The notes: generated by a model from the letters alone, not told the origin. DNA of 64,000 nt from a virus (IMGVR_UViG_3300028840_006907:128001-192000), one strand, 5' to 3'. Shown: positions 8,193-63,538, numbered from the stretch's first letter. Made by a program: numbers and translations.

Positions 8193-8193
8193 G

Positions 8194-8224: not shown

Positions 8225-8253
8225 TATTTAAAATTATAAAAGGAGAAAAAATT

Positions 8254-8841: not shown

Positions 8842-8868
8842 TAATTCATTAATATCGATTTAAATAGT

Positions 8869-9478: not shown

Positions 9479-9481
9479 GAT

Positions 9482-10566: not shown

Positions 10567-10612
10567 GTAAATATTCCTCTTAAAATTGTGCCTTGAAAAC
10601 TTGCACCGTTTT

Positions 10613-13297: not shown

Positions 13298-13306
13298 TAA
13301 TTCTCC

Positions 13307-14382: not shown

Positions 14383-14401
14383 TTTTATATCTCCCCTTTA
14401 A

Positions 14402-15571
14402 TTATCCAAAATTAGACTTTCGGGTCAGAGGTATCTTTTTTGCAGTATCCGCAAATAGTTTTAACCCTTTCCATGAATCAATGTGGTAGGAAGTAATATA
14501 AGGTGCCTTAGGAGGTGGGCAACCACAATGCCCGTTAACTCTAACTGATCTTTTACCCTCTTTATTGGCATACATCTCCTTAGCATCTTTTAAAGGCATA
14601 TTCCCATCGACCATCCAGTAAGTCCATGCTCTTTCAAAGGTGAAACCCGGGAGTTCTCCAGAGATAGAGAAAGGAACTTCTCCGTCACCTTTTTTAGATA
14701 CAATATCAATACCGGCTAGATCAAGTTCAAGTCTGATGTAATGATCACAAGCTACCTCTCCAGCAAGATTCCCCATTGTATAACTTTCTCCATTATTGGC
14801 TAGATGCGTTTCGCATTTCTTTTTGATTTTTTTCTGATAACATTCTTCGTGGAAATATTTCCATTTTTCATAAAGAACTTCATCATTTTCTTCAATGACA
14901 TAATTTTCATCTATATTTTTTCTGCCATTTTTGTTTTTCTCATAACCATATTCTTTATCAATAGTCAGGTCAATGAGCCCCCTATTGAAAATAGTATGAT
15001 GAAATATATAGACAGTATTTTTGTCTGTGTTTCGAAGCTCTTTTTCAATTTCTGTTAAAGTTTTCCCGACGTATTTGGAGTTTATCTCAAATTGGTTAGA
15101 GTACCGTAATCTTTTGGTTTTATGGCAATACTCTACTTCCCATCCTTTATTACAGTGGGAACATTTTACATAAGCGGGAGGTAAATCATTGCCCATTGAG
15201 AATGAGATACTTATAGGATACGGCCTTTTGTTTTTTGCCCAATCAAAATCTTCTGCATCCATCTCTTCTCGGGTTAATATATTAGGGATATTTTCTTTAC
15301 TCCATCTTTCAATAAAATCCCAAAATTCTGTCTTTGTAAAAACTTTTCCTACAGGAAAATTGAAAATTTTCTCTACCGGAATAAAACCTGTCGCAGTACC
15401 TAAATTACCACACGTATCGAGATAATATCGACCTAAGACATAATATTCGTATAGTCTTTCATCACGTTTGTAACCTGCTTCGTGTCTTTCATTGATCATT
15501 TCCCAAAATGTGTTGTAAGATTTAAGTGACTTTTCGATTCCTTTAATTGTGTTATAGTCTTGTTTTTTCAT
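14402..15571 (-). CDS. hypothetical protein (389 aa)
   Basis: Long uninterrupted ORF in the track. Confidence 0.5.
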   Translation of the reverse strand: MKKQDYNTIKGIEKSLKSYNTFWEMINERHEAGYKRDERLYEYYVLGRYYLDTCGNLGTATGFIPVEKIFNFPVGKVFTKTEFWDFIERWSKENIPNILTREEMDAEDFDWAKNKRPYPISISFSMGNDLPPAYVKCSHCNKGWEVEYCHKTKRLRYSNQFEINSKYVGKTLTEIEKELRNTDKNTVYIFHHTIFNRGLIDLTIDKEYGYEKNKNGRKNIDENYVIEENDEVLYEKWKYFHEECYQKKIKKKCETHLANNGESYTMGNLAGEVACDHYIRLELDLAGIDIVSKKGDGEVPFSISGELPGFTFERAWTYWMVDGNMPLKDAKEMYANKEGKRSVRVNGHCGCPPPKAPYITSYHIDSWKGLKLFADTAKKIPLTRKSNFG

Positions 15572-16599
15572 TTTACCACATGTTTAGAAGTGATTGTTTC
15601 TGCGAATTCTGGCCCCCTATCATAGTCATCAATCCATATGTTATCACAGTGCCGATTTCCTTTTTTCTCACTGCCGTACCATTGTGTCCTCCAATGTGCC
15701 TCAACTCTTATCTTATGATCCAGTTTCCATTTTCCGACACCTCCAGCTTGTTTGATACGAGTTATATCGTTATTCTTATCCTTTATATTTGAACCAACAA
15801 TAATAAATCTTTTGTTGGTAGCTTTTTCTTTCCTTTGTTCCAGTTTTCTTTTCTTGGTTTTATTTTTAATATTTTTTAATCTTGCATCAAAATCTAGTGG
15901 ATCATGGTTTTTTAAATCAGGTTTTTTGCTTGTGATATATAAAAGAGTGTTAAATACAAATTTTGCGAATTCTTCTAAATGATCAACATTTTTATATAAA
16001 TCATATTTATCTACTTCTTCCTTTTTTCTTTTTGTCTCATTTTCAATATAAATCTTTAATTGATCCTGAATTTTTCCAGGTTGCATTTCTATGTGGAAAT
16101 AAAAGGTGGTATCATTAAATGGTATGTCTGGTGTAGGTTTTAATAATGAACATGCCATTACTCTAATATGCTTTTCAGTATTGAAATCTCGAAGATAAAC
16201 GTAAAAACCATTTACAGGATGTTTACTTCCATCTATATCATTTATAGAAAAAAGACCTGGATCTATCTGTATAAAAATTTCTCTAAACGGGGATCTTAAG
16301 AAATAAGCATCAGTATTACAATTTGTTTGGGCTAGTCTTGCTGAAAGTTCTGGTGTTATATAGTATATCTGATCAGCATTATTTTTCATTTGATACATAT
16401 GAAAATATGTATTGTAAAAATGACTTATTCTTGCTGGTGAATCAAATTCAGTAAAAATAGAAGAAGTAGCATTACAAAATTGTTTGAATGTAGGATCAAA
16501 ACCAATATCGAGCATATTTTGTACTAGTATAGTTGGGGCTACTGTCTCTAGATGTTTAATAGCCAGTTCATAATGAGTTTTTGTGAAATACTTCTCCAT
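15568..16599 (-). CDS. hypothetical protein (343 aa)
   Basis: Long uninterrupted ORF; ATGA overlap with downstream gene. Confidence 0.5.
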   Translation of the reverse strand: MEKYFTKTHYELAIKHLETVAPTILVQNMLDIGFDPTFKQFCNATSSIFTEFDSPARISHFYNTYFHMYQMKNNADQIYYITPELSARLAQTNCNTDAYFLRSPFREIFIQIDPGLFSINDIDGSKHPVNGFYVYLRDFNTEKHIRVMACSLLKPTPDIPFNDTTFYFHIEMQPGKIQDQLKIYIENETKRKKEEVDKYDLYKNVDHLEEFAKFVFNTLLYITSKKPDLKNHDPLDFDARLKNIKNKTKKRKLEQRKEKATNKRFIIVGSNIKDKNNDITRIKQAGGVGKWKLDHKIRVEAHWRTQWYGSEKKGNRHCDNIWIDDYDRGPEFAETITSKHVVK

Positions 16600-16763
16600 A
16601 ATAATTATACAAAGTTTATAAGGTGTTTCAATAAGAAAAAAATGATTTAATTTCTATTTAATCGTTTAATCAGCGATTATCTATTAATATAATTACCGTA
16701 TATAGAAAGTAATGTACTATAAAAATAAAGTGAAATACCATAAAAGCAAACAGAAATGATAAA

Positions 16764-17390
16764 ATGATTGAGACACTTTTTTATTTTTGCTATTATTCTT
16801 ATTTACTAGGTGACTTAAAAAGTACTGAGATGTACTATTCTCTATTGAGAAAAGAATTCAAAGAACATGGCCGAAAAGATTCATTAGAATCTCACCAATA
16901 CCGAGAATTGAAAAAAGTTAAAGATGCTCTTGATTCTGGAACCATATCCAAGAAGGAATGGGTAGCTGATAAAGTTATTGTACCCAAGATTAATTCAGAG
17001 ATAAAAATAAAACAAGATGAATTGGTCCGGAAGATCCATATGGAGGGGCTAGAACAGCTTAAAGTTATCTTGGATGATTGTGTGCAGATATATAATATTG
17101 AGCATCCTTGTGGCTCCTACGGGGCTGTAGATATGGTTTATAAAGGATTGAATACGATCTATCCGGTGGAAGTGAAACGAAGTCGGGGAGAACATGATTT
17201 AATTGGACAAATAGGAAAGTATGATTTATATCATCGTTTAAGGCTCCATTACAAACATTATAAACATGTTCAACCGGTAACGATATGTCATTCTTATCAG
17301 AAATTTGCTTTAAATGAGTTAAGACAAATGAGGGTTTTGACCTTAATTTATACCATAATTAATAAGAAAATTACTCTAAATGTAATATAA
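16764..17390 (+). CDS. hypothetical protein
   Basis: ORF track; first + strand gene after the divergent intergenic region 16600-16763. Confidence 0.4.
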   Translation: MIETLFYFCYYSYLLGDLKSTEMYYSLLRKEFKEHGRKDSLESHQYRELKKVKDALDSGTISKKEWVADKVIVPKINSEIKIKQDELVRKIHMEGLEQLKVILDDCVQIYNIEHPCGSYGAVDMVYKGLNTIYPVEVKRSRGEHDLIGQIGKYDLYHRLRLHYKHYKHVQPVTICHSYQKFALNELRQMRVLTLIYTIINKKITLNVI

Positions 17391-17487
17391 ATTACTTTTC
17401 TATTGACTTTAAGATCATTTAGGGGTATATTTAAATTAAATTACCTTTTGTTAGAAAACGATAATTTCTAAAGAGTGTGTCAAAGAA

Positions 17488-17565
17488 ATGCTGAGAATGA
17501 CTTTTAATAGTAACCCAAATCCACAACCAAAGAATTTGCTATTCGTTGGGGTTGTTATGATATAG
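17488..17565 (+). CDS. small peptide ORF (25 aa), copy A of a repeated peptide-plus-hairpin unit
   Basis: Translated by eye: MLRMTFNSNPNPQPKNLLFVGVVMI; similar to the peptide at 18036..18110. Confidence 0.25.
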   Translation: MLRMTFNSNPNPQPKNLLFVGVVMI

Positions 17566-17589
17566 TCATAATCTCTACCTTGGATCAGG

Positions 17590-17629
17590 AAAAGCCCCGG
17601 CAAATGAGAGTTCTCCGGGGCTTTTCTTA
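17590..17629 (+). terminator. terminator-like hairpin with conserved loop AATGAGAGTTC (copy A)
   Basis: Stem AAAAGCCCCGG / CCGGGGCTTTT, 14 nt loop CAAATGAGAGTTCT, then T-rich tail. Confidence 0.45.
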
Positions 17630-17646
17630 TTTAATAATGTACTAAT

Positions 17647-17979
17647 ATGAAATTCGGTTCTATCACAGGTTTTTATAAGGGAAGGATAGAACTTATGAAT
17701 AAAGTATCTTGGGATGAGTATAATAGTATGGTAAATTCAGCAATTGATAGTGGGTATCCTTATGCTAGTGGTATTTTAATAGCTGAATTAGAATCCATAG
17801 CTAAGAATCTAACTCATCAAAATAAAAAGATAGAGGAAACATTAGTAAAAGAAGATAAGGATAAATTGGAAATTAGATTGGAATCAGTAAAGTCATGGAA
17901 TAAAGATACTATTGAGGGTATCGAAAGAGCTATTAAAAAAGCTGATGAAGCAGTAAAAAAATTAAGTGTTGACATTTAA
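17647..17979 (+). CDS. hypothetical protein
   Basis: ORF track. Confidence 0.4.
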   Translation: MKFGSITGFYKGRIELMNKVSWDEYNSMVNSAIDSGYPYASGILIAELESIAKNLTHQNKKIEETLVKEDKDKLEIRLESVKSWNKDTIEGIERAIKKADEAVKKLSVDI

Positions 17980-18035
17980 TACAATTTGTGGTATCTTTAA
18001 ATTTACATAGTTTTTATTATAAGGAAAGTTTTAAA

Positions 18036-18110
18036 ATGTTGTTTACAAAAATACTCAATAATAACCCGCAACCTAATCAACCAACGAATATTTATTTGTC
18101 GGGGGCCTGA
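18036..18110 (+). CDS. small peptide ORF (24 aa), copy B of the repeated unit
   Basis: Translated by eye: MLFTKILNNNPQPNQPTNIYLSGA; AAGGAAAG upstream. Confidence 0.25.
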   Translation: MLFTKILNNNPQPNQPTNIYLSGA

Positions 18111-18140
18111 GTATTGTCCAAAAGTTAAACTGAAATCACA

Positions 18141-18175
18141 ACCCCCGGCGAATGAGAGTTCACCGGGGGTTTTTA
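18141..18175 (+). terminator. terminator-like hairpin with conserved loop AATGAGAGTTC (copy B)
   Basis: Stem ACCCCCGG / CCGGGGGT, loop CGAATGAGAGTTCA, then TTTTT. Confidence 0.45.
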
Positions 18176-18179
18176 TTTT

Positions 18180-18255
18180 TGGGATGTCGCCTAACGGTAT
18201 GGCACCTGACTCTGGCTCAGGAATAATCAGGGTTCAAGTCCTTGCATCCCAGCCA
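18180..18255 (+). tRNA. tRNA-Gln (anticodon CTG)
   Basis: Acceptor TGGGATG/CATCCCA with U1-A72 (typical of bacterial tRNA-Gln), anticodon stem CCTGA/TCAGG with loop CTCTGGC, T-loop TTCAAGT, encoded GCCA. Confidence 0.75.
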
Positions 18256-18279
18256 ATTAACTTTAGGAAACAACAATAA

Positions 18280-18353
18280 CGGGGTGTGGCCTAGTCTGGT
18301 AAGGCGTCTGCTTCGGGAGTAGAAAATCGGAGGTTCAAATCCTCTCATCCCGA
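18280..18353 (+). tRNA. tRNA-Pro (anticodon CGG)
   Basis: Acceptor CGGGGTG/CATCCCG with C1-G72, D-stem GCCT/AGGC, anticodon stem TCTGC/GTAGA with loop TTCGGGA, T-loop TTCAAAT. Confidence 0.75.
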
Positions 18354-18371
18354 TTAATAAAGGTAAAAATT

Positions 18372-18926
18372 ATGAGACCCATGATATATCCTAAAAAGAA
18401 TAGGAAAATAAAAAGACCACGAAGATCGAGACCATTAAAAAGATGTGTTCATATTGATGGAAAAGAATGGAGGTGGGAAACAACAGGTCACTGGGATAGT
18501 GATGCAGGTAGTTATGGTTGTTTAACTGATCAGAGCGTTAAAATACTTTCTCCTGATAATAAATTTTTTTCTATACGTGCTCATGAAGTAATGAAATGTG
18601 AACCGATAAGATGGGAATGTTGTGTTGGTGAAAAATTAATAACAGTTTTACCGGGGAAAGTAAAACAGTATATAATAGATAATTTAATTGATCATGATAT
18701 TTCAAGATCGTTAAGGAGACGCATTCATATAGATGGTAGAGAATGGGGTTGGCAGTTTAGTAAAGGAAATCCTGCATATCAGCTCTGTGGAGTATCTGTC
18801 CGTTCTCCTGATAATCGGTATTTATGGATTTATGCAAAAGAGTTAGGATACGAGATTAAACCATCAGTAATTAAAAAGTATATAATTGATAATTTATTAT
18901 ATCGGGGTATAGCGCAGCCTGGTTAG
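18372..18926 (+). CDS. hypothetical protein with internal tandem duplication
   Basis: Two repeated halves (HIDGKEWRWETTGHW...SPDNKFFSIRAHEV / HIDGREWGWQFSKGN...SPDNRYLWIYAKEL; KQYIIDNLIDH / KKYIIDNLLYR); 3' end overlaps tRNA-Pro(GGG). Confidence 0.4.
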   Translation: MRPMIYPKKNRKIKRPRRSRPLKRCVHIDGKEWRWETTGHWDSDAGSYGCLTDQSVKILSPDNKFFSIRAHEVMKCEPIRWECCVGEKLITVLPGKVKQYIIDNLIDHDISRSLRRRIHIDGREWGWQFSKGNPAYQLCGVSVRSPDNRYLWIYAKELGYEIKPSVIKKYIIDNLLYRGIAQPG

Positions 18927-18980
18927 CGCGTCTGAATGGGGTTCAGAAGGTCGCCAGTTCAACTCTGGCTACCCCGACCA
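18903..18980 (+). tRNA. tRNA-Pro (anticodon GGG)
   Basis: Acceptor CGGGGTA/TACCCCG, D-stem GCGC/GCGC, anticodon stem TCTGA/TCAGA with loop ATGGGGT, T-arm GCCAG-TTCAACT-CTGGC, encoded ACCA. Confidence 0.8.
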
Positions 18981-19008
18981 AAGTTCTTTGAAAATTATGG
19001 GGGTGTGG

Positions 19009-19274
19009 CAGAAGGGATATGCAGTCCTCAAAAAGTAGACAGGTCTGGGTAAAACCGGGTCATTACAGGAAGTTTGTATTCGCTACTGAAACGAAACAAA
19101 GGGAAGGTAGTGTAACGCTTACGGACTGGTGCTTGCAAGGGTTTACGGAAGACACTGACACGTTGCCTGGGATCTGGAGACAGCCCAGGAGGGTTTGTAA
19201 ATAACGGCAGGAAGTCCTTTTTCCCAATAGTGAGCTTTGGATGACTTATGCCGGTTCGAATCCGGTCACCTCCA
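19009..19274 (+). ncRNA. tRNA-Ala-like element with about 190 nt insertion (interrupted tRNA or other tRNA-like RNA; identity unresolved)
   Basis: 3' end is a canonical T-arm GCCGG-TTCGAAT-CCGGT followed by CACCTCC-A; the only complementary 5' strand is GGGGGTG at 19009, giving a 7 bp acceptor helix with a G3-U70 wobble (the tRNA-Ala/tmRNA identity pair); no group I motifs and no tag-like ORF inside. Confidence 0.3.
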
Positions 19275-19360
19275 TCAAAATAAATTAAATAGATAGATAG
19301 GCAAACTGGCAAGCCATTTGGTTGTAATAGAAAATGTGTAGCAAGATCATAAAGACATAC

Positions 19361-19632
19361 TGGAGTGTAGCTCAGTGGCAGAGCGGGTGGCTGTCTTGGT
19401 TGGCAGCTCTTATAGGAAACTGTAAGATGAAAACTCGGTGAATTCAGGGAAACCTAAGTCTTAAACAGATATGGCAATCCTGAGCGAAGCCTTGAGAAAG
19501 GAACGTGCAGAGACTTATAGCGCCGAGCACCTAAGGTGAAAACTATGGTGATGAGATAGTCCAGGCCCTTGGGAAATCAGGGGAATTACTGTAACCACTT
19601 GGTCGGGGGTTCAAATCCCTCCACTCCAGCCA
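19361..19632 (+). tRNA. tRNA-Asn (anticodon GTT), interrupted by a group I intron in the anticodon loop
   Basis: Exons join to TGGAGTG-TA-GCTC-AGTGGCA-GAGC-G-GGTGG-CTGTTAA-CCACT-TGGTC-GGGGG-TTCAAAT-CCCTC-CACTCCA-G-CCA; U1-A72 and loop CUGUUAA match E. coli tRNA-Asn. Confidence 0.7.
19395..19591 (+). ncRNA. group I self-splicing intron (in tRNA-Asn anticodon loop, between positions 35 and 36)
   Basis: Contains group I core motifs TCAGGGAAACC, GGCAATCCTGAGC, GTGCAGAGACT (R-like) and GAGATAGTCC (S-like); 5' exon ends in U paired to G in putative guide GCAGC (P1 GCTGT/GCAGC); intron ends in G. Confidence 0.65.
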
Positions 19633-19683
19633 ATTTTAAAGGGTCCTAGAGGAATTTACTTTAAAGAAAAGGAGAAAAATTAA

Positions 19684-19884
19684 ATGAGTAAAGATGAGAA
19701 ACCTGATTATTCGAAAGATTTCGATACATGTCCTTGGTGTAATAAAATACCAAAAGTATCGAAACATTTCAGATATGATGAATGGCAACTGATCCATCGT
19801 TGTGATAAATTACTTACTGTAATTAGTATGGATTGGACTGAATTAGATAGTCTTAAAAATCGATGGAATCGACCTAAGAAATGA
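19684..19884 (+). CDS. hypothetical small protein
   Basis: ORF track; AAGGAGAAAAA upstream; CPWCNK in translation. Confidence 0.4.
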   Translation: MSKDEKPDYSKDFDTCPWCNKIPKVSKHFRYDEWQLIHRCDKLLTVISMDWTELDSLKNRWNRPKK

Positions 19885-20156
19885 CAGAATGTACTATATG
19901 TGAAAGAGAAACTCCTGAGAAATATGTGGAGAAACATCACTTGACTCCTTGTAGCCGAGGAGGAAAGGATAAGGAGAAAACACTTACTTGTATTGATTGC
20001 GGAGATCAGGTACATCGATTATTTACGAATAAAGAATTGGAGAGAGACTATTATACACTCGAAAAATTATTAGCTCATCCTAAAATCCAGAAATGGAAGA
20101 AATGGGTTAAGAATAAGAGATTCGGGATATGTATGAAACGAAAAAAGAAGAGATAA
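19881..20156 (+). CDS. zinc-binding small protein
   Basis: ORF track; CTICERE...CIDCGDQVH; ATGA overlap with upstream gene. Confidence 0.4.
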   Translation: MTECTICERETPEKYVEKHHLTPCSRGGKDKEKTLTCIDCGDQVHRLFTNKELERDYYTLEKLLAHPKIQKWKKWVKNKRFGICMKRKKKR

Positions 20157-20163
20157 TATATAA

Positions 20164-20239
20164 CGGGCGGTCGCCTAATCTGGTATGGCACCACATTTGG
20201 GATGTGGAATAACTGGAAGTTCAAATCTTCTCCGCCCGA
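20164..20239 (+). tRNA. tRNA-Pro (anticodon TGG)
   Basis: Acceptor CGGGCGG/CCGCCCG with C1-G72, anticodon stem CCACA/TGTGG with loop TTTGGGA, T-arm GGAAG-TTCAAAT-CTTCT, A73; variable region slightly long. Confidence 0.65.
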
Positions 20240-20263
20240 TATATTTTTAAATCAATAAGTTAC

Positions 20264-20339
20264 TGGGATGTAGTTCAGTTGAAAGAACACCGGAATTTGG
20301 ATCCGGGGGTCGCAGGTTTGAGCCCTGCCATCCCAGCCA
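20264..20339 (+). tRNA. tRNA-Gln (anticodon TTG)
   Basis: Acceptor TGGGATG/CATCCCA with U1-A72, D-stem GTTC/GAAC, anticodon stem CCGGA/TCCGG with loop ATTTGGA, T-arm GCAGG-TTTGAGC-CCTGC, encoded GCCA. Confidence 0.8.
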
Positions 20340-20537
20340 TTTAATTTTTTTATCAATATATTTACCACAAAGACGTATATTATTTATACAACTTAAAAAT
20401 AGGAATAATATATGACATAGATAAAAATACCACCCTAGATCCTCAAAATATTCAAACCTCCTTAAAACACGGTTATTATACCAAATGGTGTTATACCAAA
20501 CAGTACAATATTCATTCATTTAAACAGGAGAATAACC

Positions 20538-20837
20538 GTGATCAAAAATAGAAAATTTTTAAAATTTGAATTAAAATTAGAAGCTCAAAAATTACGAAAA
20601 ATCAAGACTGATATTAAAACCAAGCAGAGAGCTGGCCAGTATGCCGGTCATGAACAGTCCGAATTATTGACTCTTAAATGGAATTACCGCCATCGATTTA
20701 TTGCTTATTGTATGATGCGGGGTAGAGAATATAAGCAAATCGAAAGAACATGTAGAGTTGAACCAAATCATGACTGGGTAAAGGAGATCATCAATGAATA
20801 CTCCCCGCAAAAAGAAACTATACGTGCTTCTGCGTAA
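20538..20837 (+). CDS. hypothetical protein
   Basis: ORF track; AGGAGAA upstream; GTG start. Confidence 0.35.
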   Translation: MIKNRKFLKFELKLEAQKLRKIKTDIKTKQRAGQYAGHEQSELLTLKWNYRHRFIAYCMMRGREYKQIERTCRVEPNHDWVKEIINEYSPQKETIRASA

Positions 20838-21108
20838 AGATTTGGATGAAACTTATCGATGTGTTCAAGGAGGCCATGCTATTGCTGAGTATTCTCTAAA
20901 GGATTACCAGTCATTTAAAGAATGGGCAAATGGAACTCTGATTTATCTTGGAGTACCTGATTTAAAAGCTTTGGAATTATGGTTGCTCAAATTGGAACGG
21001 AAAAATATTTTTCATATCAGGTTTCATGAACCCGATCTTGGGAATGAGTTAACATCGGTAGCTTGTATAAATACAGGGAAAATTTTTAAAAGTCTTCCTC
21101 TTGCTTAA
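20794..21108 (+). CDS. PTH2-family peptidyl-tRNA hydrolase-like protein
   Basis: LYVLLRKDL...QGGHAIAEY...IYLGVPDLKAL...TGKI lines up with the PTH2 pattern (VLVVRxDL...QxxHA...kvvlKv....L......G......DAG.T.i..G..T.lgiGP). Confidence 0.5.
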   Translation: MNTPRKKKLYVLLRKDLDETYRCVQGGHAIAEYSLKDYQSFKEWANGTLIYLGVPDLKALELWLLKLERKNIFHIRFHEPDLGNELTSVACINTGKIFKSLPLA

Positions 21109-21115
21109 AGTTACA

Positions 21116-21189
21116 GCGCCTGAGGCTCTGAGGTGAGCAACTTGGACTCTAAATCCAAGTTTTTCAGGGTTCGACTCCCTACAGGCGCA
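21116..21189 (+). tRNA. putative amber suppressor tRNA (anticodon CTA)
   Basis: Acceptor GCGCCTG/CAGGCGC, A73, D-stem GCTC/GAGC, anticodon arm ACTTGGA-CTCTAAA-TCCAAGT (loop has U33, CUA, A37), T-loop TTCGACT; non-canonical 7 bp anticodon stem or 3 nt D/anticodon linker and short D-loop. Confidence 0.5.
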
Positions 21190-54012: not shown

Positions 54013-54312
54013 TTAGTGTGGAATTCCCACAAGTTTCTTAGTTTTCTTTATTTTTGGGACAACTAATTTAAATTTATGTGGTTTTTTTGGTTTTCCAGGT
54101 TTAGTATGTTTTATTTTTTTAAACCAAGTTGGTTTATATCTCATGAACATTTTTCTATGTTTAAGAACACTTCCATGGGTTCGCATGTATCTACGTCTCT
54201 GTACTCGGATCTTACTTCGATTCTTTCTATAATATAAACGGGCTTTAAGTCTTTGAGAAGGACTTCTGCGAGTAGGAGGTTTAATTCTGAGTTTTACTGC
54301 GATTTTTTCCAT
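54013..54312 (-). CDS. highly basic small protein
   Basis: R/K-rich 99 aa sequence, likely nucleic-acid binding. Confidence 0.35.
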   Translation of the reverse strand: MEKIAVKLRIKPPTRRSPSQRLKARLYYRKNRSKIRVQRRRYMRTHGSVLKHRKMFMRYKPTWFKKIKHTKPGKPKKPHKFKLVVPKIKKTKKLVGIPH

Positions 54313-55693: not shown

Positions 55694-55996
55694 TTATCCA
55701 GAAGTTTTTTTGTTATCGAATATATGTTGAGCTTCCTTTGAAAATTTGAAAAAAGGAGCTTGATATGATGGTATATCTACTGTTTCTCCTGTACGAGGGT
55801 TTCTTCCTATACGTTTGTTTCTTCTTTTCACACTAAAAGCTCCAAAGCCTCTGATTTCAATTCTGTTTTCCCTTGATAGATTTTCTAATACCTGATCAAG
55901 AAACAGTTCGACGACGGATTTTACGTCATTTACCGGTCTACCAAGTTTTTGTGCTATTTGGTTGCATATATCTAATTTTGTGGTATTTTTACTCAT
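55694..55996 (-). CDS. HU/IHF-family DNA-binding protein
   Basis: RGFGAFSVKRRNKRIGRNPRTGETVDIP matches the HU arm motif (GFGxF...R.GRNPxTGE). Confidence 0.65.
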   Translation of the reverse strand: MSKNTTKLDICNQIAQKLGRPVNDVKSVVELFLDQVLENLSRENRIEIRGFGAFSVKRRNKRIGRNPRTGETVDIPSYQAPFFKFSKEAQHIFDNKKTSG

Positions 55997-56019: not shown

Positions 56020-56526
56020 TTATTTTTTTGGTTTAAATAAATTTATGTGGTAAAAGAATTTCCATAACCAACCGATGAATGGGATATCTGTTACAGGTTT
56101 TTCTAAAACCCATTCTAGAGCACAGATATCAGGATATTCTTTTTCTTTATATTTTTTGTCATTTAATCTCTCTTCGAATAATTGTTGAAGATCTTTTTTT
56201 GTATACCTATATACGAAAGCATTACAATTTTGACAATGGTGTATCTCTTGGCATATATCCAATAGATGGGGTTCAATCTTAGCATTTTCAGGATTTGGTG
56301 GTGGCCATATAAATCTTCCTTTTGGTAGATTTGATTCTGGCTGGTGAAGAAAACAAAGATTTATTACGGTAGATATTTTACCCTTTTTTAGATAATAAGG
56401 GTAATTATATCTACAATTCTCAGGTACTCTTTTAAGAAATTTCTTATAAAGTTTTACTAGATGGTAATATTTTACCTCTCTTAATTTTTTCCAAATTTTT
56501 CCAGTACTTTTCATTTTGGTTCCCAA
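56020..56526 (-). CDS. hypothetical protein
   Basis: ORF track. Confidence 0.4.
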   Translation of the reverse strand: MGTKMKSTGKIWKKLREVKYYHLVKLYKKFLKRVPENCRYNYPYYLKKGKISTVINLCFLHQPESNLPKGRFIWPPPNPENAKIEPHLLDICQEIHHCQNCNAFVYRYTKKDLQQLFEERLNDKKYKEKEYPDICALEWVLEKPVTDIPFIGWLWKFFYHINLFKPKK

Positions 56527-57179
56527 TTAAGTCCAAAAACCTTTACTTTAGGTTTTTTGTAAAAGAAATTTTCATCTATGAAATAGATTTTGTCCGCATA
56601 CGACTCTAAAGAAGAGTTGTAGCATTTTTTAAAGCTCCATATTTCTATCTGTTTATTTTTACTCTTTAAATACCGGCATAGATCAGTGAAATTCCCGTCT
56701 CCAGACATTAATATCCATTTAGAGTAATGGTTTATTTTATCCAAACAATCAATCACTATTTCTACATCATTATATGATTCTTTGTATATGGGTATATTAT
56801 ATGTCTGTTCATTCTGGACTGGTTTATTATATCCTGTTGTGGGTCGATTCTGCCTTTTAATTCTTACATTTTGTTTTTTTGCCTTCATAGACTTATTGTA
56901 AACGGGTTCATTCTGGACTAACCGGTTATGCCCTATTAAGGTCCGGTTTTGTTTTTTTGCCCTTATAGTGTATCCTATGGAAGTCAGTTTGGATTCAAAT
57001 CTGCTACTATCAAAATCATTTCCTCTGAACATATAAATACTTGCACCAATAAGAAATTCGGTTTCTCGACTATTAAAATATTCCCACACTTTTTCAAAAT
57101 CGATCTTTTCTTCTTTGTTTTTCATTTCATAAAAGAGATTTTGAAGATCTATTTGTAGGAATGTCGTAAAATTTTTCAT
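56511..57179 (-). CDS. hypothetical protein, possible NYN/LabA-like domain
   Basis: ILMSGDGNFTDL resembles the NYN pattern; internal basic repeats KAKKQN...; weak. Confidence 0.3.
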   Translation of the reverse strand: MKNFTTFLQIDLQNLFYEMKNKEEKIDFEKVWEYFNSRETEFLIGASIYMFRGNDFDSSRFESKLTSIGYTIRAKKQNRTLIGHNRLVQNEPVYNKSMKAKKQNVRIKRQNRPTTGYNKPVQNEQTYNIPIYKESYNDVEIVIDCLDKINHYSKWILMSGDGNFTDLCRYLKSKNKQIEIWSFKKCYNSSLESYADKIYFIDENFFYKKPKVKVFGLNWEPK

Positions 57180-57781
57180 TTAATTTTCTCCATGATAAGA
57201 CCGTTTTTTGATTCCTTCACTTTATATACTCGGTCTGCATCGTGTTTAAATTCTTTTTGATGGGTTACAAGAAGTATATCTATACCTATCTTTTTTGAGA
57301 GTTCACTTATTAATTTTGCTGTGTTAGAAATGTAAAGTTCTCCGACTGGTGCAAAGGTCTCATCTAAAAGCATCAATCGTGCGAGATCTTTTTTTAGTAC
57401 ACTGAGAATACGCATAAGAAAACTTTCTATAACAGCTACACTTCCTCCAAAAGATTTGAAATCACCTTCAATATCTCCATCTAAAGTTTTTAATTCAATA
57501 TTTATTTTTCCTGCTTTTTCTTTTTTGTCAGGTAAAAAAGTTAAATTCTGATCATCAAAGACACTTTTAAGACCGTAAGTGATAAGAGCTGCCATTCGGG
57601 TTATTTCATTTTTAACCATAATATCTAAAAGATGTTTTAATACCACACTAGCTTTTGAATCCCTTTCGATGTTTATCTTAAGGGATTCAATAGTATCTTT
57701 TAGTGACTGCTCTTGATTTAATAACGCCTTATAGAACCCATCAATCTGATCTGTTTGTCGTTGTAAAGCAGTAATATCCAT
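57176..57781 (-). CDS. SbcC/Rad50-like ATPase, C-terminal half (signature, Walker B, H-loop)
   Basis: SFGGSVAVIESF (signature-like), RLMLLDETFAPV (Walker B), ILLVTHQ (H-loop) after a short coiled-coil. Confidence 0.4.
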   Translation of the reverse strand: MDITALQRQTDQIDGFYKALLNQEQSLKDTIESLKINIERDSKASVVLKHLLDIMVKNEITRMAALITYGLKSVFDDQNLTFLPDKKEKAGKINIELKTLDGDIEGDFKSFGGSVAVIESFLMRILSVLKKDLARLMLLDETFAPVGELYISNTAKLISELSKKIGIDILLVTHQKEFKHDADRVYKVKESKNGLIMEKIK

Positions 57782-57783
57782 TT

Positions 57784-58938
57784 TTATACTTTCCTAGCTA
57801 GTGTTAATAAAGCTATCGCAGTAAAAGGTATTGTGATTGGATCTTTGTCTTTCTCTTCTATGATAATACTAGCTTCACTATAGATAGTGCATTTTCTCGC
57901 TTTTAAATAGAAATTGACATTTTTTGCCTGAAAGAGACTTAAAATGTTTTTAAATTTAGCACATTCTATAAGGAAATCAAGTTTATTATTTCCTGAAATT
58001 CTTTTACATTCCATATTTTCATATGAAGGTCGATCAGTCAAGGTTTTCATTTTAAGTATTTGATCTTCTCCGTAAGAAGAATCGATGGCTATATCTTCCC
58101 ATGAAGAAAGAGCTAAACGATTCAACTTTTTTGAGAAATCTGAACAGTTCACATTAAAACCGTCTGTGTCTGGGACTTCAGTGGTAATTGGTAATTTCGG
58201 TTTTCCCACAATTGATTGTCTAAAACCGAAATAATTAAGGTCGTCTTCTGAAGAAAATGTAATGTATTTTTCAGAAGATTTAATAGTGACTTCAGAAGAT
58301 TTTGTTTTATCAACAAAATTGATAATTGATGGAAGCATTGCTCTTCTTAAAGCCAGTTCCGGGATACTATTGAAATCATCACTCTTGAAAGCCCCTATTT
58401 TAGTATTACCATCTGATCCGTATAATGTACCTTCTTCAATAAACAGATTGGAGAACTTTTTATCCTTATCATCCTTAGGAAGAAAACCCTGGATAAATTT
58501 TACTCCTTTAAGAAAAACAACTGAATTGATTTTGCCCCTTAATTCTTGATTGGTTAAATCAAAATTAAGAAATTTTTCAGGTTCGAAAGAAGCAAAAGAA
58601 ATGTAAGCTTTTTTGTTATCAGATGCATACACATTCAGAGTTTTCTTTTCAGGGTCGTAGGAAAAAGAGATCTCTTCTGAATCTGAATTGTTAATAAGTA
58701 AAAGTATTCTTTTTGGATCTGCTGTAAATTCTGTTATATCCCCTTCAACAGATTTTAAAGGAAAATGAGATTGAGCAATTTTATCTTCGTCTGTGGCATA
58801 CAAAGAAACGTTTTCATTACTTTCATTAATTCTGAATAAAGTATGGCTACGGATGGTATTAGCCACATCACCCGTTGCCAGGGAGACTACTGATAGAGCA
58901 GTTTTTAATTCTTTAGTTGGAGCTGAAAAATTTATCAT
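57784..58938 (-). CDS. possible DNA polymerase sliding clamp (DnaN-like)
   Basis: N-terminus MINFSAPTKELKTALSVVSLAT resembles the beta-clamp start; length 384 aa; weak. Confidence 0.3.
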   Translation of the reverse strand: MINFSAPTKELKTALSVVSLATGDVANTIRSHTLFRINESNENVSLYATDEDKIAQSHFPLKSVEGDITEFTADPKRILLLINNSDSEEISFSYDPEKKTLNVYASDNKKAYISFASFEPEKFLNFDLTNQELRGKINSVVFLKGVKFIQGFLPKDDKDKKFSNLFIEEGTLYGSDGNTKIGAFKSDDFNSIPELALRRAMLPSIINFVDKTKSSEVTIKSSEKYITFSSEDDLNYFGFRQSIVGKPKLPITTEVPDTDGFNVNCSDFSKKLNRLALSSWEDIAIDSSYGEDQILKMKTLTDRPSYENMECKRISGNNKLDFLIECAKFKNILSLFQAKNVNFYLKARKCTIYSEASIIIEEKDKDPITIPFTAIALLTLARKV

Positions 58939-58941
58939 TTT

Positions 58942-59202
58942 TTATACCTCTATTAAGTTAAGTTTTTGTTTAGTTTCTTCTACTTCTTTTTCCAGATCTG
59001 TCAATAATTTCTGTAATTCATTTTCTTTCTCTTCTCTGATACTGGATAATTTTTTCGGATCATAACCTTTCTTTTTTATCTCCTTGAGGAGCTTTTCAAG
59101 ATTAATTTTTTCATTATTAAATCTCTCCTCCAGGCGGATTTTCTGATTAGAGATAGTATTCACATCTTCTTTGATTTTTTGATATCTTTCTGTTTCATTC
59201 AT
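58942..59202 (-). CDS. small coiled-coil protein
   Basis: E/K-rich heptad-like 86 aa. Confidence 0.35.
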   Translation of the reverse strand: MNETERYQKIKEDVNTISNQKIRLEERFNNEKINLEKLLKEIKKKGYDPKKLSSIREEKENELQKLLTDLEKEVEETKQKLNLIEV

Positions 59203-59217
59203 AACATTTACCTCATT

Positions 59218-60060
59218 TTAATCGAGACCGAATTCGATAACTTCACCATCGCTCTCTAGGTTTTCTATTTTAGAAGGTTTTGCCCGAGAAGCCTTATCTT
59301 TAAGACCCTCAAGACATTCGTTTGCATAGTTACAATATTTACAGGATTTGGAACTAGGTGTAGGAAGATATTTCTCTGTATTAACAATCTCTTTAATATC
59401 CAAAGATAGATTTGCTCTGAATTCGTTTAATAATTCCTGATCAATTGCTACAGGAATAAGAGTGTTAAAACGGTAATAGAAAAATCCTAGTTCCATTGGT
59501 AATCTTTTAAATTGGAAATAGTAAAGTAAAGCATAAAATAGGAGTTGATTATTATCAATATTTTTACCTATTTTAGTAGTCCCTTTTCCATCAAAGATAG
59601 ATTCTTCTGTTGTTTTTATAGGATTTTTATGTATAAAATCTAACCTTCCTTTTAAAATTAGAGAATTTTTTAATGTTACTTCTATCTGTATTTCTGACCG
59701 TGTATTAAGAAAATAATTTCTATTCGTTGATTCCATGATATGGCATACATCAGAATAAGCTGATGCTAGGATCTCCTCTTTAGACTCTTTACAGAAAAAT
59801 GCAGTCCAGTCAACGAGGCTATTTCTTAAAATCATTTTGTATAAAGTAATTAGTTTTTCTCTTATTTCTGAAGAAGTCAAGATAGGGTTGGTTTTACACC
59901 AAATATTACAATATAATTCAAAGAATTTTTCTACCAGTCTTCCATACAAAGTGAAATACTCATTAATAGGTACAGTAGGAGGATCTTCCTTTACATATTG
60001 TTTATAGAATTTTTTAGGGCATTCTTTAAATGCCTTCCAGGATTTAAAGGTTATGTTCAT
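59218..60060 (-). CDS. PD-(D/E)xK nuclease, Cas4/RecB-like with Cys cluster
   Basis: GRLDFIH...IFDGKGTTK nuclease-like core; one N-terminal Cys (KECPKK) and C-terminal CKYCNYANEC. Confidence 0.4.
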   Translation of the reverse strand: MNITFKSWKAFKECPKKFYKQYVKEDPPTVPINEYFTLYGRLVEKFFELYCNIWCKTNPILTSSEIREKLITLYKMILRNSLVDWTAFFCKESKEEILASAYSDVCHIMESTNRNYFLNTRSEIQIEVTLKNSLILKGRLDFIHKNPIKTTEESIFDGKGTTKIGKNIDNNQLLFYALLYYFQFKRLPMELGFFYYRFNTLIPVAIDQELLNEFRANLSLDIKEIVNTEKYLPTPSSKSCKYCNYANECLEGLKDKASRAKPSKIENLESDGEVIEFGLD

Positions 60061-61031
60061 TTAGAAGCCTCCTGGATAAAATAAAGCACTCTTTTCCGGA
60101 CAGCTTCAACCATATCCATTTTGTCTATCATATCATCAATTGTTTGGGATTTATCAGATGAATCAACTACAGCTTCAGTAGCTAATTTTTCCACAAATAA
60201 TTTTATTTCTTCTTTTTCCTGTTGTTCCTGTTTTTTCTTTTCAAGATCAAAAACCTCACTTGCAGGTTGAATTCTTAATCTTATAGGACGTACTAAATAC
60301 GATGGCTCACCGTTTTCTACCTGGATTTTTATGAAACCTATCTGAGGGTGATGGTCTATATCATCTTCTGATATAGCCCCGCGACTCATTGAGCCTATAT
60401 TTATAAAATATTTCCCGTTCTGTTTATAGATACCCTGGTCTATGTGATAATGCCCTATAACGAAAATGTCAGATGGGAGTTCACCTATCTCATCATACCC
60501 ATAAATTTTATTCTTAAAAAGCATAGTACTTTTTAAACCAGCATAAATGTGGAGAGCACATATCTGTGTAATACAATCACCTTTATCAGGTAGATTTAAA
60601 TTTGATAAATCAATATCTTCTGTAAATGGAATTCCTACAAGAGATATTTTCACATTATCCTTTTCAATTATCTCATGACGAAGTTGAATAAGGGTACCAT
60701 CAGCAAATAACACTCCCAGCGGTTGTTCAGAGATACTTTCCAATCGATCTGCTGAAAGATCATGATTTCCTTCTATCATATAGATGGGACAGGAAAATTT
60801 TTGAAATATTTTTATGAGTTCCCTGTTTAAGTTGTGGCTGTTTTTTGCCGGATTCTTAAGATTAAAAAGATCCCCTGCTATAATAGCAGCATCAGCATTT
60901 AATTTTCTACATGCCATGCCCATTTGGTCTATTTTATCAAGCATGGTTTTTTTAAAATCATCTGTCCTTGATCTGGGACCGTTATCACTAATATGGATAT
61001 CATTCGCTGTTATAATTGTAAATTCAGTCAT
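60057..61031 (-). CDS. sbcD: SbcD/Mre11-family nuclease
   Basis: Calcineurin-like phosphoesterase motifs DIHISD, AGDLFN, EGNHD, GHYH. Confidence 0.65.
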   Translation of the reverse strand: MTEFTIITANDIHISDNGPRSRTDDFKKTMLDKIDQMGMACRKLNADAAIIAGDLFNLKNPAKNSHNLNRELIKIFQKFSCPIYMIEGNHDLSADRLESISEQPLGVLFADGTLIQLRHEIIEKDNVKISLVGIPFTEDIDLSNLNLPDKGDCITQICALHIYAGLKSTMLFKNKIYGYDEIGELPSDIFVIGHYHIDQGIYKQNGKYFINIGSMSRGAISEDDIDHHPQIGFIKIQVENGEPSYLVRPIRLRIQPASEVFDLEKKKQEQQEKEEIKLFVEKLATEAVVDSSDKSQTIDDMIDKMDMVEAVRKRVLYFIQEASK

Positions 61032-62329
61032 AATGGCCTCTCACATAAAGGGCATACTTTAATTTCGTTCTTTTCTTTTTGTGCTTTTTCAAGCTCAGAG
61101 GTAGTTTTCTTTAAATCATCCCTTGTGGTTTTCAGGGATTTAACTAGTGCAAGAAATTCAATTTCTATGCTTTGCATATTTGTTAAATCTTTTAGCTTTA
61201 ATGAAACCTTATTTATAGCTTTTTGGATTTGATCGAAATTTAGAGATTGTAAAACATTCTTTTGTTTTCGTATGTTTTCAGAAGTAGTGATTAAAGAATC
61301 ATCCCATTTTTTAAGGGATAATACTTCATTTAGAGATAATTCTGTATCTTCAATTTTAGGTATCTTTATTTTTGATATACTTTTTAATTTGTTAACTATT
61401 GACGTTAATACTTTATACTTTTCACTCTTTTCTTGAATCCATTCAAATTCATCTAATATTTCTTTACCTTTGGTTTCATTAGGAATACTTATTTCGGGAA
61501 TGCTTTTTAATTTTTCTATGACCTCTATTGATTTTTTATATTTGCTATCTGTTTCTTGAAGCCATGGTAATTCAGATATAACTTTTTTACATTTAGAACT
61601 ATCAGGTATCTCGATATCTTTTATGGATTTAAGACGTTGTAATATGTCAGTGAGGGATTTTAACTGTCCTTCTAAATATCTGATGGTATGGATTTCTTCT
61701 TGAAGTTCTTTTGCCTTTTTATCTTTTTCAGCAAGTAATTTTACTGTTTCTTTTATTGTTTTGAAATCCTTATATTTCTCAAGATCAATTTGAAGTGCTT
61801 TGAGATCAGCTTCCCTGGTTTTTAATAACGATTTATCAGCTTTAATTGCTTTTTGGCATAAACTATCTGCAGTACTGAGAGTATCGATTTGATATAGATT
61901 TGCTAAAACCTCTGTGACGACAGGACCAGGTTTATTGATAAGAAAAAGAGGATCGAATTGAGATGCTATTAATGGTGATATCTTTTGATCCCCTATTACC
62001 ATTTTTCGAAATCCTGCCTTTGTTATAGGTTCGGGAATAGTTCCTTTTAATTTTGTAAACGGTTCATCATAACCTTTGATTTTATAAGAAGCTGTACTTT
62101 TTGTTTTTTCCCATTCAAAATTAAGGTCTTTATAATCGACAATGACTCTAGCTTTTTTCTTACCTTTCTTTATGAAACCACTTCCGGTCTGGTTATTTAA
62201 AGCTGCATCAATTGCTCTTATAATAGCACTTTTCCCAATATTGTTCTTACCAATAACAACAGTGAATCCTTCAATATCGAAATCAACTTTATTTATACTC
62301 TGGAAATTTTCAATTGATATTTTAGTCAT
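61028..62329 (-). CDS. SbcC/Rad50-like ATPase, N-terminal half (Walker A, coiled-coil, terminal CxxC hook)
   Basis: Walker A GKNNIGKS, long coiled-coil, ends in KVCPLCERPL (zinc-hook-like CxxC) immediately before the stop. Confidence 0.5.
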   Translation of the reverse strand: MTKISIENFQSINKVDFDIEGFTVVIGKNNIGKSAIIRAIDAALNNQTGSGFIKKGKKKARVIVDYKDLNFEWEKTKSTASYKIKGYDEPFTKLKGTIPEPITKAGFRKMVIGDQKISPLIASQFDPLFLINKPGPVVTEVLANLYQIDTLSTADSLCQKAIKADKSLLKTREADLKALQIDLEKYKDFKTIKETVKLLAEKDKKAKELQEEIHTIRYLEGQLKSLTDILQRLKSIKDIEIPDSSKCKKVISELPWLQETDSKYKKSIEVIEKLKSIPEISIPNETKGKEILDEFEWIQEKSEKYKVLTSIVNKLKSISKIKIPKIEDTELSLNEVLSLKKWDDSLITTSENIRKQKNVLQSLNFDQIQKAINKVSLKLKDLTNMQSIEIEFLALVKSLKTTRDDLKKTTSELEKAQKEKNEIKVCPLCERPL

Positions 62330-63538
62330 TTATTTTCTCTTTTTCTTTTCTTTTTCTTTTTTAACAAAACTATCTGCTACATTTTCCATTAAAGAATCAA
62401 AATCATCACCTTCATTTTCTGTATTCTGATATATTTCTTGAATCTCATTATCCTGATTGATTGTGAGACAGTCCTGAACTTTTTTAAATGCATCCATATC
62501 AGTATTAAGTTTTTTCCATAACTGCTCTTTTCCCTGTACTTTGAAAATGAGTTCCTTATTTAATGTAAAGCTATAAAAGGAACCTCCTTTAACAATGACT
62601 TTTGAATTAATTGCCAATTCCATAATAGATTTGATATTATCGAAGCCAATTCCAAAACGAATGTAAACTGGAGCAGATTTGTAAGGTTTATCGATTTTAT
62701 TTTTTACAACAGAAGCTTTAATAGTTACATTGGTAGGTTCCTTATCTTTTTTACCTGTTAATTTACTTGTAACATCAATTTTTTCTACAATACTTCTTTT
62801 TAGTGATATTCGAACAGATGAATAAAATTTCAATGCCCTACCACCACTAGATTCTTCATCTGGACCTGTCTCATATTTGCTCTTTTTAATAACAGTTCTT
62901 AACTGATTGGTAAAAAGAAGATTTGTATTACTGGCTTTAAGAAATTTGGTAATATAATTCAAAAATACAGACATTAATTGTGCTTGCAATCCAATACGAG
63001 CTGATTCATCAATATCTCCTTGAAGAAATTCTTTTGGAATCATGGCAGAGACACTATCAACAGCAATGATATAAGGTTTCATCATAAGCATATCGAATAT
63101 TTGTCTGGCTCCTTGCTGAAAATAATTTGGTTGAACTAGTATAAATTTATCCGGACTGAGGTCTACCCCTATTTTCTGGGCATAGTCAGGATGGAATGTT
63201 TGTTCAAAATCAACTAGGATACCAACACTACCTAATTCTTGAGCACATTTAATAGCACTTAAAACAAAGGTTGTTTTACCAGAAGATTCATCACCAAATA
63301 TTTCAACGATATGACCTCGGGGAAGTCCTCCCGGTTTACCTGTCATAGTACCGTCCCCGATAAGTGAATCGATTATCCAAGAACCGGTAGGGACGAAATC
63401 AATAGCTTGTCTATTTTTTAAATTGACAATAGTATGTGCATCTTCTTTATTTACTTTTCTTAGATACTCTTGAGCGCTTAGTGGCTTCTTGGCCTTTTTC
63501 AAATATTCTTCCGCTGTGAAGGCTTTCTTTTCCGCCAT
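62330..63538 (-). CDS. recA: RecA-family recombinase
   Basis: GLPRGHIVEIFGDESSGKTT (Walker A), IAVDSVSAM, LQAQLMS, FTNQLR, SGGRALKFYSSVRISL match RecA conserved blocks; GGGAGG upstream of ATG. Confidence 0.7.
   Translation of the reverse strand: MAEKKAFTAEEYLKKAKKPLSAQEYLRKVNKEDAHTIVNLKNRQAIDFVPTGSWIIDSLIGDGTMTGKPGGLPRGHIVEIFGDESSGKTTFVLSAIKCAQELGSVGILVDFEQTFHPDYAQKIGVDLSPDKFILVQPNYFQQGARQIFDMLMMKPYIIAVDSVSAMIPKEFLQGDIDESARIGLQAQLMSVFLNYITKFLKASNTNLLFTNQLRTVIKKSKYETGPDEESSGGRALKFYSSVRISLKRSIVEKIDVTSKLTGKKDKEPTNVTIKASVVKNKIDKPYKSAPVYIRFGIGFDNIKSIMELAINSKVIVKGGSFYSFTLNKELIFKVQGKEQLWKKLNTDMDAFKKVQDCLTINQDNEIQEIYQNTENEGDDFDSLMENVADSFVKKEKEKKKRK

Follow-up and report, generated by a model that had tools for sequence, protein, structure and literature searches.

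We identified two genes in a 64-kb stretch of viral DNA (IMGVR_UViG_3300028840_006907:128001-192000, hereafter the window) whose products, of 433 and 201 amino acids, are very probably the two halves of a single Rad50/SbcC-type ATP-binding cassette (ABC) ATPase made of two chains. The window is an apparent piece of a huge-phage genome, with a GC content of about 0.32 and 13 tRNA genes, and proteins identical to both are encoded on a contig of 469,617 bp. Rad50/SbcC and SMC proteins are defined by a two-lobed head joined by a long folded-back coiled coil, the arm, which in Rad50 carries a zinc hook at its tip; the mechanistic contribution of the Rad50 arm and hook is still debated. In the window, the N-terminal lobe and a helical arm that ends in a CPxC motif are found on the larger protein (the N-half), and the C-terminal lobe is found on the smaller one (the C-half). 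A reading of the window made from the DNA alone, which we call the original prediction, had proposed an SbcC/Rad50 ATPase split by sbcD and three other genes, and had placed an SbcD/Mre11 protein, a Cas4-like nuclease, a coiled-coil protein and a DnaN-like protein between the two parts. Complementary motifs, profile and fold matches, co-occurrence and gene order, and natural fusions bear out the split, and family matches, together with the all-helical prediction for an 86-residue protein, bear out the intervening genes.

Two lobes of an ABC head on separate proteins

The N-half contains a Rad50/SMC-fold N-terminal lobe with a Walker A motif and a Q-loop. Among 75 aligned homologs, residues G27, G32, K33, R38, Y82, F129, C426, P427 and C429 are invariant and the Q-loop glutamine, Q124, is nearly so, and the same alignment has no Walker B, signature motif or H-loop. 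The chain ends in ...KVCPLCERPL, followed by a TGA stop codon. Pfam matches comprise AAA_15 (28.3 bits against a cut-off of 32.1), SMC_N (residues 2-64), AAA_23 and Rad50_zn_hook, the last of which aligns profile positions 1-29 of 52 with residues 406-433 (E=1e-3, 19.3 bits against a cut-off of 24.3). Among PHROGs the match is phrog_16465 (‘exonuclease’, 7.9e-19), and positions 191-445 of the 878 in the NCBIfam Rad50 model PRK03918, the ascending coil up to the hook, align with residues 158-433. Compared with structures in the Protein Data Bank (PDB), the N-half family profile matches archaeal and bacterial Rad50 heads at E ~1e-7. The AlphaFold2 model of the N-half monomer, with a predicted local distance difference test (pLDDT) score of 85.5, resembles the P. 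furiosus Rad50 N-terminal fragment and the heads of SMC, RecN and RecF, and the fold scores of the head lobe do not discriminate among Rad50, SMC, RecN and RecF.

The C-terminal lobe, with signature, Walker B, D-loop and H-loop, is present on the separate 201-residue protein. Its motifs are SFGGS (residues 110-114), LMLLDE (136-141) and VTHQ (172-175), and no Walker A occurs in its family. The C-terminal end of SMC_N (profile positions 150-218 of 220, E=1e-3) and phrog_15167 (‘ATPase’, 4e-11) both match it, and its family profile aligns with part of the M. jannaschii Rad50 head. Profile searches of the open reading frames (ORFs) in the window recovered exactly one N-lobe and one C-lobe. Rad50 carries both lobes on a single chain, N-lobe...C-lobe; in the window each lobe has its own ORF, and the two ORFs are separated by 3.2 kb and four genes. 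The original prediction had assigned a Walker A motif, a long coiled coil and a CxxC end to the larger ORF, and these correspond to the motifs, to six predicted arm helices and to the CPLC that precedes the TGA. It had also assigned the signature, Walker B and H-loop to the 201-residue protein, where G112/G113, D140/E141 and H174 are conserved; that this protein is an ABC ATPase C-lobe, a point it had left for checking, was confirmed by the SMC_N end, by phrog_15167 and by the alignment to the Rad50 stub and C-lobe. Since the catalytic residues and C426/P427/C429 in the N-half, and G112/G113/D140/E141 in the C-half, are invariant, we do not regard the split as a product of chance.

We propose that the nucleotide-binding head is completed by non-covalent assembly of the two proteins, with the Walker A motif and the Q-loop coming from the N-half and the signature, Walker B, D-loop and H-loop from the C-half. 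Helix 148-184 of the N-half and the ~45 residues at the start of the C-half would pair as a short antiparallel coiled-coil stub. The precedent for such an assembly is the P. furiosus Rad50 catalytic domain (PDB 1F2U/1F2T), a head that assembles from separately expressed N and C fragments, each of which is matched by one of the phage lobes. The split in 1F2U is a laboratory construct from which the whole coiled coil was removed, whereas the phage split is natural and retains a full-length arm strand and the hook motif.

In canonical Mre11-Rad50 complexes, the C-terminal helices of Mre11 normally bind the coiled-coil stub at the head. The split head may likewise work with SbcD/Mre11, with its stub as the site for the Mre11 C-terminal helices. 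Partnership of the N-half with Mre11/SbcD is indicated genetically by a start/stop overlap and by conserved adjacency of the two genes, and a complex of the proteins is predicted. By analogy with T4 gp46/gp47 and with the structures of SbcCD, ATP-driven dimerisation of the heads would clamp DNA ends for cleavage by SbcD. The products may then feed RecA/UvsX-dependent recombination and replication, with the co-operonic Cas4-like nuclease and clamp, as for T4 gp46/gp47.

The AAA_15 match of the N-half, and lower-scoring fold matches of the head lobes to GajA, OLD, retron ATPases, JetC and PtuA, could instead suggest an SMC-like defence or counter-defence module of the Lamassu, Wadjet or Gabija type rather than a recombination enzyme. 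We consider this extremely unlikely. The best fold matches are to Rad50, SMC, RecN and RecF, with those to OLD/GajA-type ATPases weaker than those to Rad50 and SMC. OLD, GajA and AAA_15 defence ATPases carry a complete ABC domain on one chain with a Toprim or other nuclease, whereas the N-half has no Walker B, H-loop or Toprim, and no effector domain is present. The N-half gene is also translationally coupled to that of Mre11/SbcD and sits between RecA/UvsX and the clamp, and fused homologs (described below) adjoin Metallophos genes and occur in T4-like contexts with rIIB.

Distribution of the halves and a permuted fusion family

We found more than 100 N-half homologs of 345-491 residues, nearly all ending in CPxC(E/G)(R/K)P, and more than 190 C-half homologs, all of about 200 residues. 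For 18 pairs of N-half and C-half clusters the longest contigs are identical in size, which implies that both genes reside on the same contig. An exhaustive profile search returned 3,246 proteins at E<=1e-10, and stand-alone C-halves (~190-240 residues) account for ~95 of the best 150 representatives of clusters formed at 50% identity. On more than 100 contigs of huge phages the two halves are encoded separately and in a conserved operon order, and assemblies that share this layout are 30-90% identical. Specifically, contigs of 512 kb and 496 kb reproduce the operon order of the window, from RecA through the C-half to NYN, a 150-residue protein and HU, and the uncultured 485-kb phage LR745208 also carries both halves.

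Cultured phages encode the pair as well. In Tunturiibacter phage Tunturi_5 (PP885688.1) the N-half, gp181, lies beside UvsX and SbcD, and the C-half, gp14, lies 108 kb away near a clamp gene; in Microbacterium phage Magritte (OR553905.1) the N-half is gene 155 and the C-half gene 2. With the halves 40 to 108 kb apart in these two phages, operon linkage is not universal. Each of the two genomes has one N-lobe and one C-lobe, and a search of all their six-frame ORFs with N-half, C-half and fusion profiles detected no intact Rad50 in the complete sequences of Tunturi_5 (308,711 bp) or Magritte (133,228 bp). None was found within the window either, so that the check for an intact Rad50/SbcC proposed in the original prediction favours the split in both the related genomes and the window. 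In none of the genomes and long contigs examined did one half occur without the other.

Two annotated genes of these phages were considered as alternative parts of the enzyme and rejected. Magritte gene 247 (‘ASCE ATPase’) does not match the N-half profile, and that phage has a single N-lobe, gene 155; Tunturi_5 gp270 (‘DNA repair exonuclease’) is a second metallophosphoesterase and not an ATPase, and hence not a hidden SbcC. Magritte gene 155 (L008, 93838..94890) encodes 350 residues comprising an N-lobe and a helical arm, and is far from both Mre11 (gene 228) and the C-half (gene 2).

Apart from the unusual layout itself, nothing speaks for an assembly or frameshift error, or for a Rad50 gene recently disrupted by the insertion of four genes and now decaying, and we give such an origin next to no credence. 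The layout, complete with ATGA translational coupling, recurs across the more than 100 independent assemblies and their whole range of identity, and phage isolates with complete genome sequences have the pair as well. The catalytic residues do not vary, and ~230 residues of coil are absent outright rather than frameshifted.

Weak matches of the N-half search revealed proteins of 600-758 residues that begin with a segment resembling the C-half and continue with one resembling the N-half. A dedicated search for these fusions yielded at least 167 clusters, in which Walker B lies near residue 148, Walker A near residue 252 and a CxxCxGxG motif at the C-terminus. In profile-profile alignments with hhalign, the N-half corresponds to columns 234-437 of the fusion (99.8%, E=6.6e-30), and the C-half profile to columns 7-209 (98.1%, E=1e-13). 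The fusion genes adjoin Metallophos (Mre11-like) genes, and one is in an rIIB context. No tblastn match to the fusion protein was obtained in 50,697 deposited phage genomes, and the family was found only in metagenomes.

We modelled one fusion, P0223 (613 residues), with AlphaFold2 (pLDDT 81.8, predicted template modelling score 0.58). The model runs from an N-terminal helix through the C-lobe and then the N-lobe to a continuous 209-residue helix and a small beta knuckle that bears the CxxC. Confidence exceeds 90 at residues 1-40 and 400-470, which agrees with their forming an antiparallel stub, and the distal 130 residues have a pLDDT of ~70 and no intrachain partner. Compared with P. furiosus Rad50, the template modelling (TM) score is 0.57 for the N fragment (1f2u_A/C) and 0.67 for the C fragment (1f2u_B). 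The fusion C-termini (residues 598-609 in P0223), with the consensus CxxCxGxG(Y/V), form a DnaJ-type zinc-knuckle half-motif and are predicted to fold as a small beta hairpin.

The fusion family resembles the window pair in its homology to both proteins, in a single-strand arm with a terminal CxxC and in its linkage to Metallophos genes. It differs in being one chain, C-lobe to N-lobe, where the window has two; its arm is predicted as one continuous helix and lacks the proline-punctuated 41-residue units of the window arm; and its terminal motif is CxxCxGxG, as opposed to CPxC(E/G)R in the split family. Because natural fusions contain both halves, we conclude that the halves are probably parts of one enzyme. 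The separation of the genes by 40 to 108 kb in Tunturi_5 and Magritte might be taken to indicate functionally unrelated ATPase remnants, with the N-half a non-catalytic DNA-binding or scaffold protein and the 201-residue protein acting with some other partner. This is very unlikely, as the motifs missing from one half are exactly those found in the other, and are invariant, as more than 160 natural fusions hold both halves, and as the halves co-occur so strictly.

The arm and its terminal CPxC motif

The arm of the window N-half is predicted by AlphaFold2 as six helices (residues 148-184, 189-234, 244-275, 285-315, 328-362 and 365-422). The ascending arm thus measures ~275 residues, and the C-half provides only ~45 residues before its head lobe, which leaves ~230 residues of descending coil absent. 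On this sequence evidence the arm appears to be a one-strand appendage of the N-lobe without a matching return strand. The intramolecular antiparallel coiled coil of equal strands that characterises Rad50 was not found in these proteins, and the fusion model consists of a stub and an unpaired helix of 209 residues. The CPLC lies four residues from the C-terminus of the N-half, and the hook motif is present only as a chain end.

These results modify one element of the original prediction, that of a Rad50 broken at its hook. The N-half does end at a hook motif, but the ~230 descending residues that a simple break would leave on the other protein are absent, and the fusions join C to N. This order implies that a link across the hook is not how the two halves belong together.

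The arm is built from 41-residue units, each of ~32 helical residues and a linker that includes I-x-I-P; in the window protein the middle three of the six helices form these repeats, with the linker at the end of each. Self-similarity of the arm peaks at an offset of 41, and prolines recur at positions 242, 283 and 324. Matches of the arm profile to leucine-rich-repeat proteins in the PDB (LIC11098, SHOC-2) were judged to be compositional or periodic artefacts, given the period of 41 and the helical prediction for this region. In homologs the first linker lies near residue 240, and the last one precedes the CxxC by a constant ~103 residues. Between these constant flanks there are 1, 2, 3 or 4 units, giving length classes of ~347, 390, 433 and 478 residues. 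The sizes of the C-half (201-206 residues) and of the small helical protein encoded in the operon (86-88 residues) stay constant while arm length varies. We considered the 86-residue protein as the missing descending strand and rejected it, since a protein of constant size cannot partner the whole of an arm that changes in 41-residue steps.

Hydrophobic residues make up ~30% of the arm. Family-averaged hydrophobicity reveals a seam with a period of ~3.4 along each of the arm helices and also along the distal fusion arm (z=7-10, equalled by 0 of 500 shuffles). Given this conserved hydrophobic seam, we conclude that the arm is no charged single alpha-helix and has to pack against something. Because arms change in length by single units, the easiest fit is a collinear segmented rod with an identical arm as its partner.

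We therefore put forward, as a tentative proposal whose chances we place somewhat below even, an arm paired in trans and closed by a terminal Cys4 zinc clasp, with the intramolecular antiparallel coil lost and the head made of two polypeptides or of a permuted chain. In a complex of the form (N.C.SbcD)2, the two N-half arms would pair side by side and the two terminal CPxC motifs would share a single zinc ion. The place of the intramolecular antiparallel arm and its apical hook would then be taken by an intermolecular arm of two chains, clasped at its end and adjustable in steps of 41 residues.

Alternatively, the head may be two-chained as we propose and the arm may fold back on itself as a hairpin or zigzag bundle, with the CPxC near the head or mid-arm acting as a local zinc latch between complexes. 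We regard this as unlikely, although several features agree with it: proline-containing linkers divide the window arm into six helices, the helices within 148-275 have a total length similar to that of the helices within 285-422, and pLDDT exceeds 90 in the proximal and terminal helices of a monomer model that lacks the C-half. However, close relatives differ by single units (1 to 4) between constant flanks, and each such change would flip the direction of a zigzag or shift the register of a hairpin. The arm of the fusion family, moreover, is one uninterrupted helix of 209 residues with no turn in its AlphaFold2 model.

Several points weigh against our proposal of a two-chain head with arms paired in trans. 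Every Pfam and NCBIfam score of both halves is below the curated cut-off, which makes these matches leads rather than assignments. The C-half profile (residues 3-192) aligns weakly (E=0.009) with the descending stub and C-lobe of the M. jannaschii Rad50 head construct (residues 172-362). A second, intact Rad50 could still be encoded elsewhere in the 469.6-kb source genome, beyond the 64-kb window. The Magritte N-half lacks a terminal CxxC, and a clasp is thus not universal. Finally, pLDDT is high in helices 161-230 and 341-420 of the monomer model, which may reflect an arm that AlphaFold2 folds back, bringing the CPxC near the head and away from a tip.

Operon context and comparison with known systems

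The operon is tightly packed on the minus strand, in the order RecA/UvsX, N-half, SbcD/Mre11, Cas4-like nuclease, 86-residue helical protein, clamp, C-half and NYN (Table 1). The stop codon of the RecA/UvsX-like gene abuts the start of the N-half, and the recombinase gene has an equal position in the related loci L004, L005 and L006. The sbcD start codon overlaps the TGA stop of the N-half within an ATGA, and the adjacency of N-half and sbcD is kept in the same three loci. The SbcD/Mre11 translation shows the motifs DIH, GDLF, GNHD and GHYH. Scans of Pfam, PHROG and NCBIfam gave no family match for the 86-residue helical protein. A clamp gene encoding 380-382 residues is at an equal position in L004 and L006, and the NYN gene in L004, L005 and L006.

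Table 1. Positions of the operon genes and of the ATPase motifs in the window
Feature	Coordinates	Strand	Evidence
RecA/UvsX-like recombinase, first operon gene	62330..63538	-	Pfam RecA 3.6e-51; phrog_97 UvsX-like 6e-61
N-half: Rad50/SbcC N-lobe (residues 1-145), helical arm (148-422), terminal CPLC	61028..62329	-	
Walker A GKNNIGKS, N-half residues 27-34	62228..62251	-	G27, G32 and K33 invariant in 75 homologs
Three tandem 41-residue arm units, N-half residues 233-355	61265..61633	-	Self-similarity
CPLC, N-half residues 426-429, zinc-hook-type half-site	61043..61054	-	C426, P427 and C429 invariant; DNA read directly
SbcD/Mre11 nuclease	60057..61031	-	Metallophos 3e-7; TIGR00619 sbcD 1e-10; Mre11_Sulfo 4e-9
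Cas4-like PD-(D/E)XK nuclease with C-terminal cysteine cluster	59218..60060	-	PDDEXK_1 1e-12; Cas_Cas4 3e-7; TIGR00372 3e-9
All-helical protein, 86 residues	58942..59202	-	Gene of 86-88 residues at equal position in L004, L005 and L006
DnaN-like sliding clamp, 384 residues	57784..58938	-	phrog_947 ‘DNA polymerase processivity factor’ 5e-10
C-half, 201 residues: ~45-residue coiled-coil stub, then Rad50/SbcC C-lobe	57176..57781	-	SMC_N, phrog_15167 and M. jannaschii Rad50 alignment
Signature-motif equivalent SFGGS, C-half residues 110-114	57440..57454	-	G112 and G113 invariant in split and fusion families
Walker B LMLLDE, C-half residues 136-141	57359..57376	-	D140 and E141 invariant
H-loop His174, C-half	57260..57262	-	H174 kept in >=90% of sequences
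NYN-domain protein, next operon gene, start overlapping the C-half stop	56511..57179	-	Pfam NYN 2.9e-18

The system shares with T4 gp46/gp47 and E. coli SbcCD a Rad50-type ABC head, an adjacent calcineurin-type nuclease, a CPxC that ends the ascending helix and a recombination/replication context. Canonical Rad50 is one chain comprising, in order, N-lobe, ascending coil, apical hook, descending coil and C-lobe, whereas the phage head is two chains, the descending coil is reduced to a stub of ~45 residues and the CPxC forms the C-terminus of the N-half. SMC proteins proper have a hinge, which the N-half lacks, its chain ending at the CPxC. RecN and RecF have a complete head on a single chain and no Mre11 partner, in contrast to the phage head, which is incomplete in either chain and accompanied by SbcD.

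Other non-canonical arrangements have been described. Fusions of Mre11 and Rad50 of the Mimivirus R555 type represent one such layout in large viruses (PMC3175470); there the nuclease and the ATPase are fused and the Rad50 part is canonical, which is the opposite direction to the phage split. RloC (PMC2610378, PMC3458546) combines a Rad50-like ABC ATPase, with its coiled coil and zinc hook, and an anticodon nuclease in one fusion protein. It shows reuse of the Rad50 module of head, coil and CxxC hook in another architecture, but both coil strands are on its single chain, it is a tRNase effector and it has no Mre11 partner.

SbcC and SbcD are almost universal among jumbo phages according to a survey whose passages on these two proteins make no mention of a split (PMC7824862), and a paper on phage SPN3US notes only that the sbcC and sbcD genes lie apart (PMC5105663). 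Full-text literature searches returned no description of a split or permuted Rad50/SbcC. PHROGs 16465 and 15167, and the JGI annotations, hold the halves separately without labelling them as one enzyme, and current labels are ‘exonuclease’, ‘ATPase’, ‘RecN’ or ‘hypothetical’. We conclude that the split or permuted Rad50 layout and its conservation in phages appear to be new, whereas Mre11-Rad50/SbcCD-like working was already known, as were the pieces, annotated separately.

The lineage is abundant in metagenomes and has cultured members (Tunturi_5 and Magritte). Head, hook motif and Mre11 partner are retained in it, the return strand has been dropped, and the lobes are separated or permuted. 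It thus offers a natural experiment on the essential features of the arm, with the N-lobe and arm on one gene and the C-lobe on another, each open to manipulation separately. If the arms do pair in trans, the fold-back arm would be dispensable for Mre11-Rad50 function, and the phage proteins would provide a minimal, genetically separable system for the roles of arm and hook. For annotation, both halves should be recognised as one enzyme.

We observed other replication genes of Tunturi_5 in several pieces that adjoin or lie close together, namely three consecutive ‘DNA helicase’ ORFs (gp98-gp100, 75742..79525) and two ‘NAD-dependent DNA ligase’ ORFs (gp108 and gp116, 83460..88691); gene fission may be a general habit of such jumbo-phage genomes. 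The 496-kb relative (L006) carries IS605-family OrfB/TnpB genes with a Cas12f-like TNB domain (2754..4142 and 17011..17793), one inserted just upstream of RecA and another downstream.

An array of 13 tRNA genes occupies positions 117..21189 of the plus strand of the window and includes, at 21116..21189, a suppressor-type tRNA with the anticodon CUA that ARAGORN labels ‘tRNA-Pyl’. TAG is the stop codon of 9 of the 54 window ORFs of >=150 residues, and genome-wide recoding is not obvious in the window. Stop-codon recoding as a means of rejoining the two halves was also considered; since the N-half stop is a TGA within the ATGA overlap, and TAG is used as a stop, read-through was rejected.

Downstream of the RNase-type NYN protein in the C-half operon, we identified an HU/IHF-like DNA-binding protein (55694..55996, minus strand), and the order NYN, 150-residue protein, HU is kept in L004 and L006. 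A further ORF of 99 residues on the minus strand (54013..54312) is extremely rich in lysine and arginine (MEKIAVKLRIKPPTRRSPSQRLKARLYYRKNRSKIRVQRRRY...), and its product could be nucleic-acid-condensing or ribosomal-protein-like.

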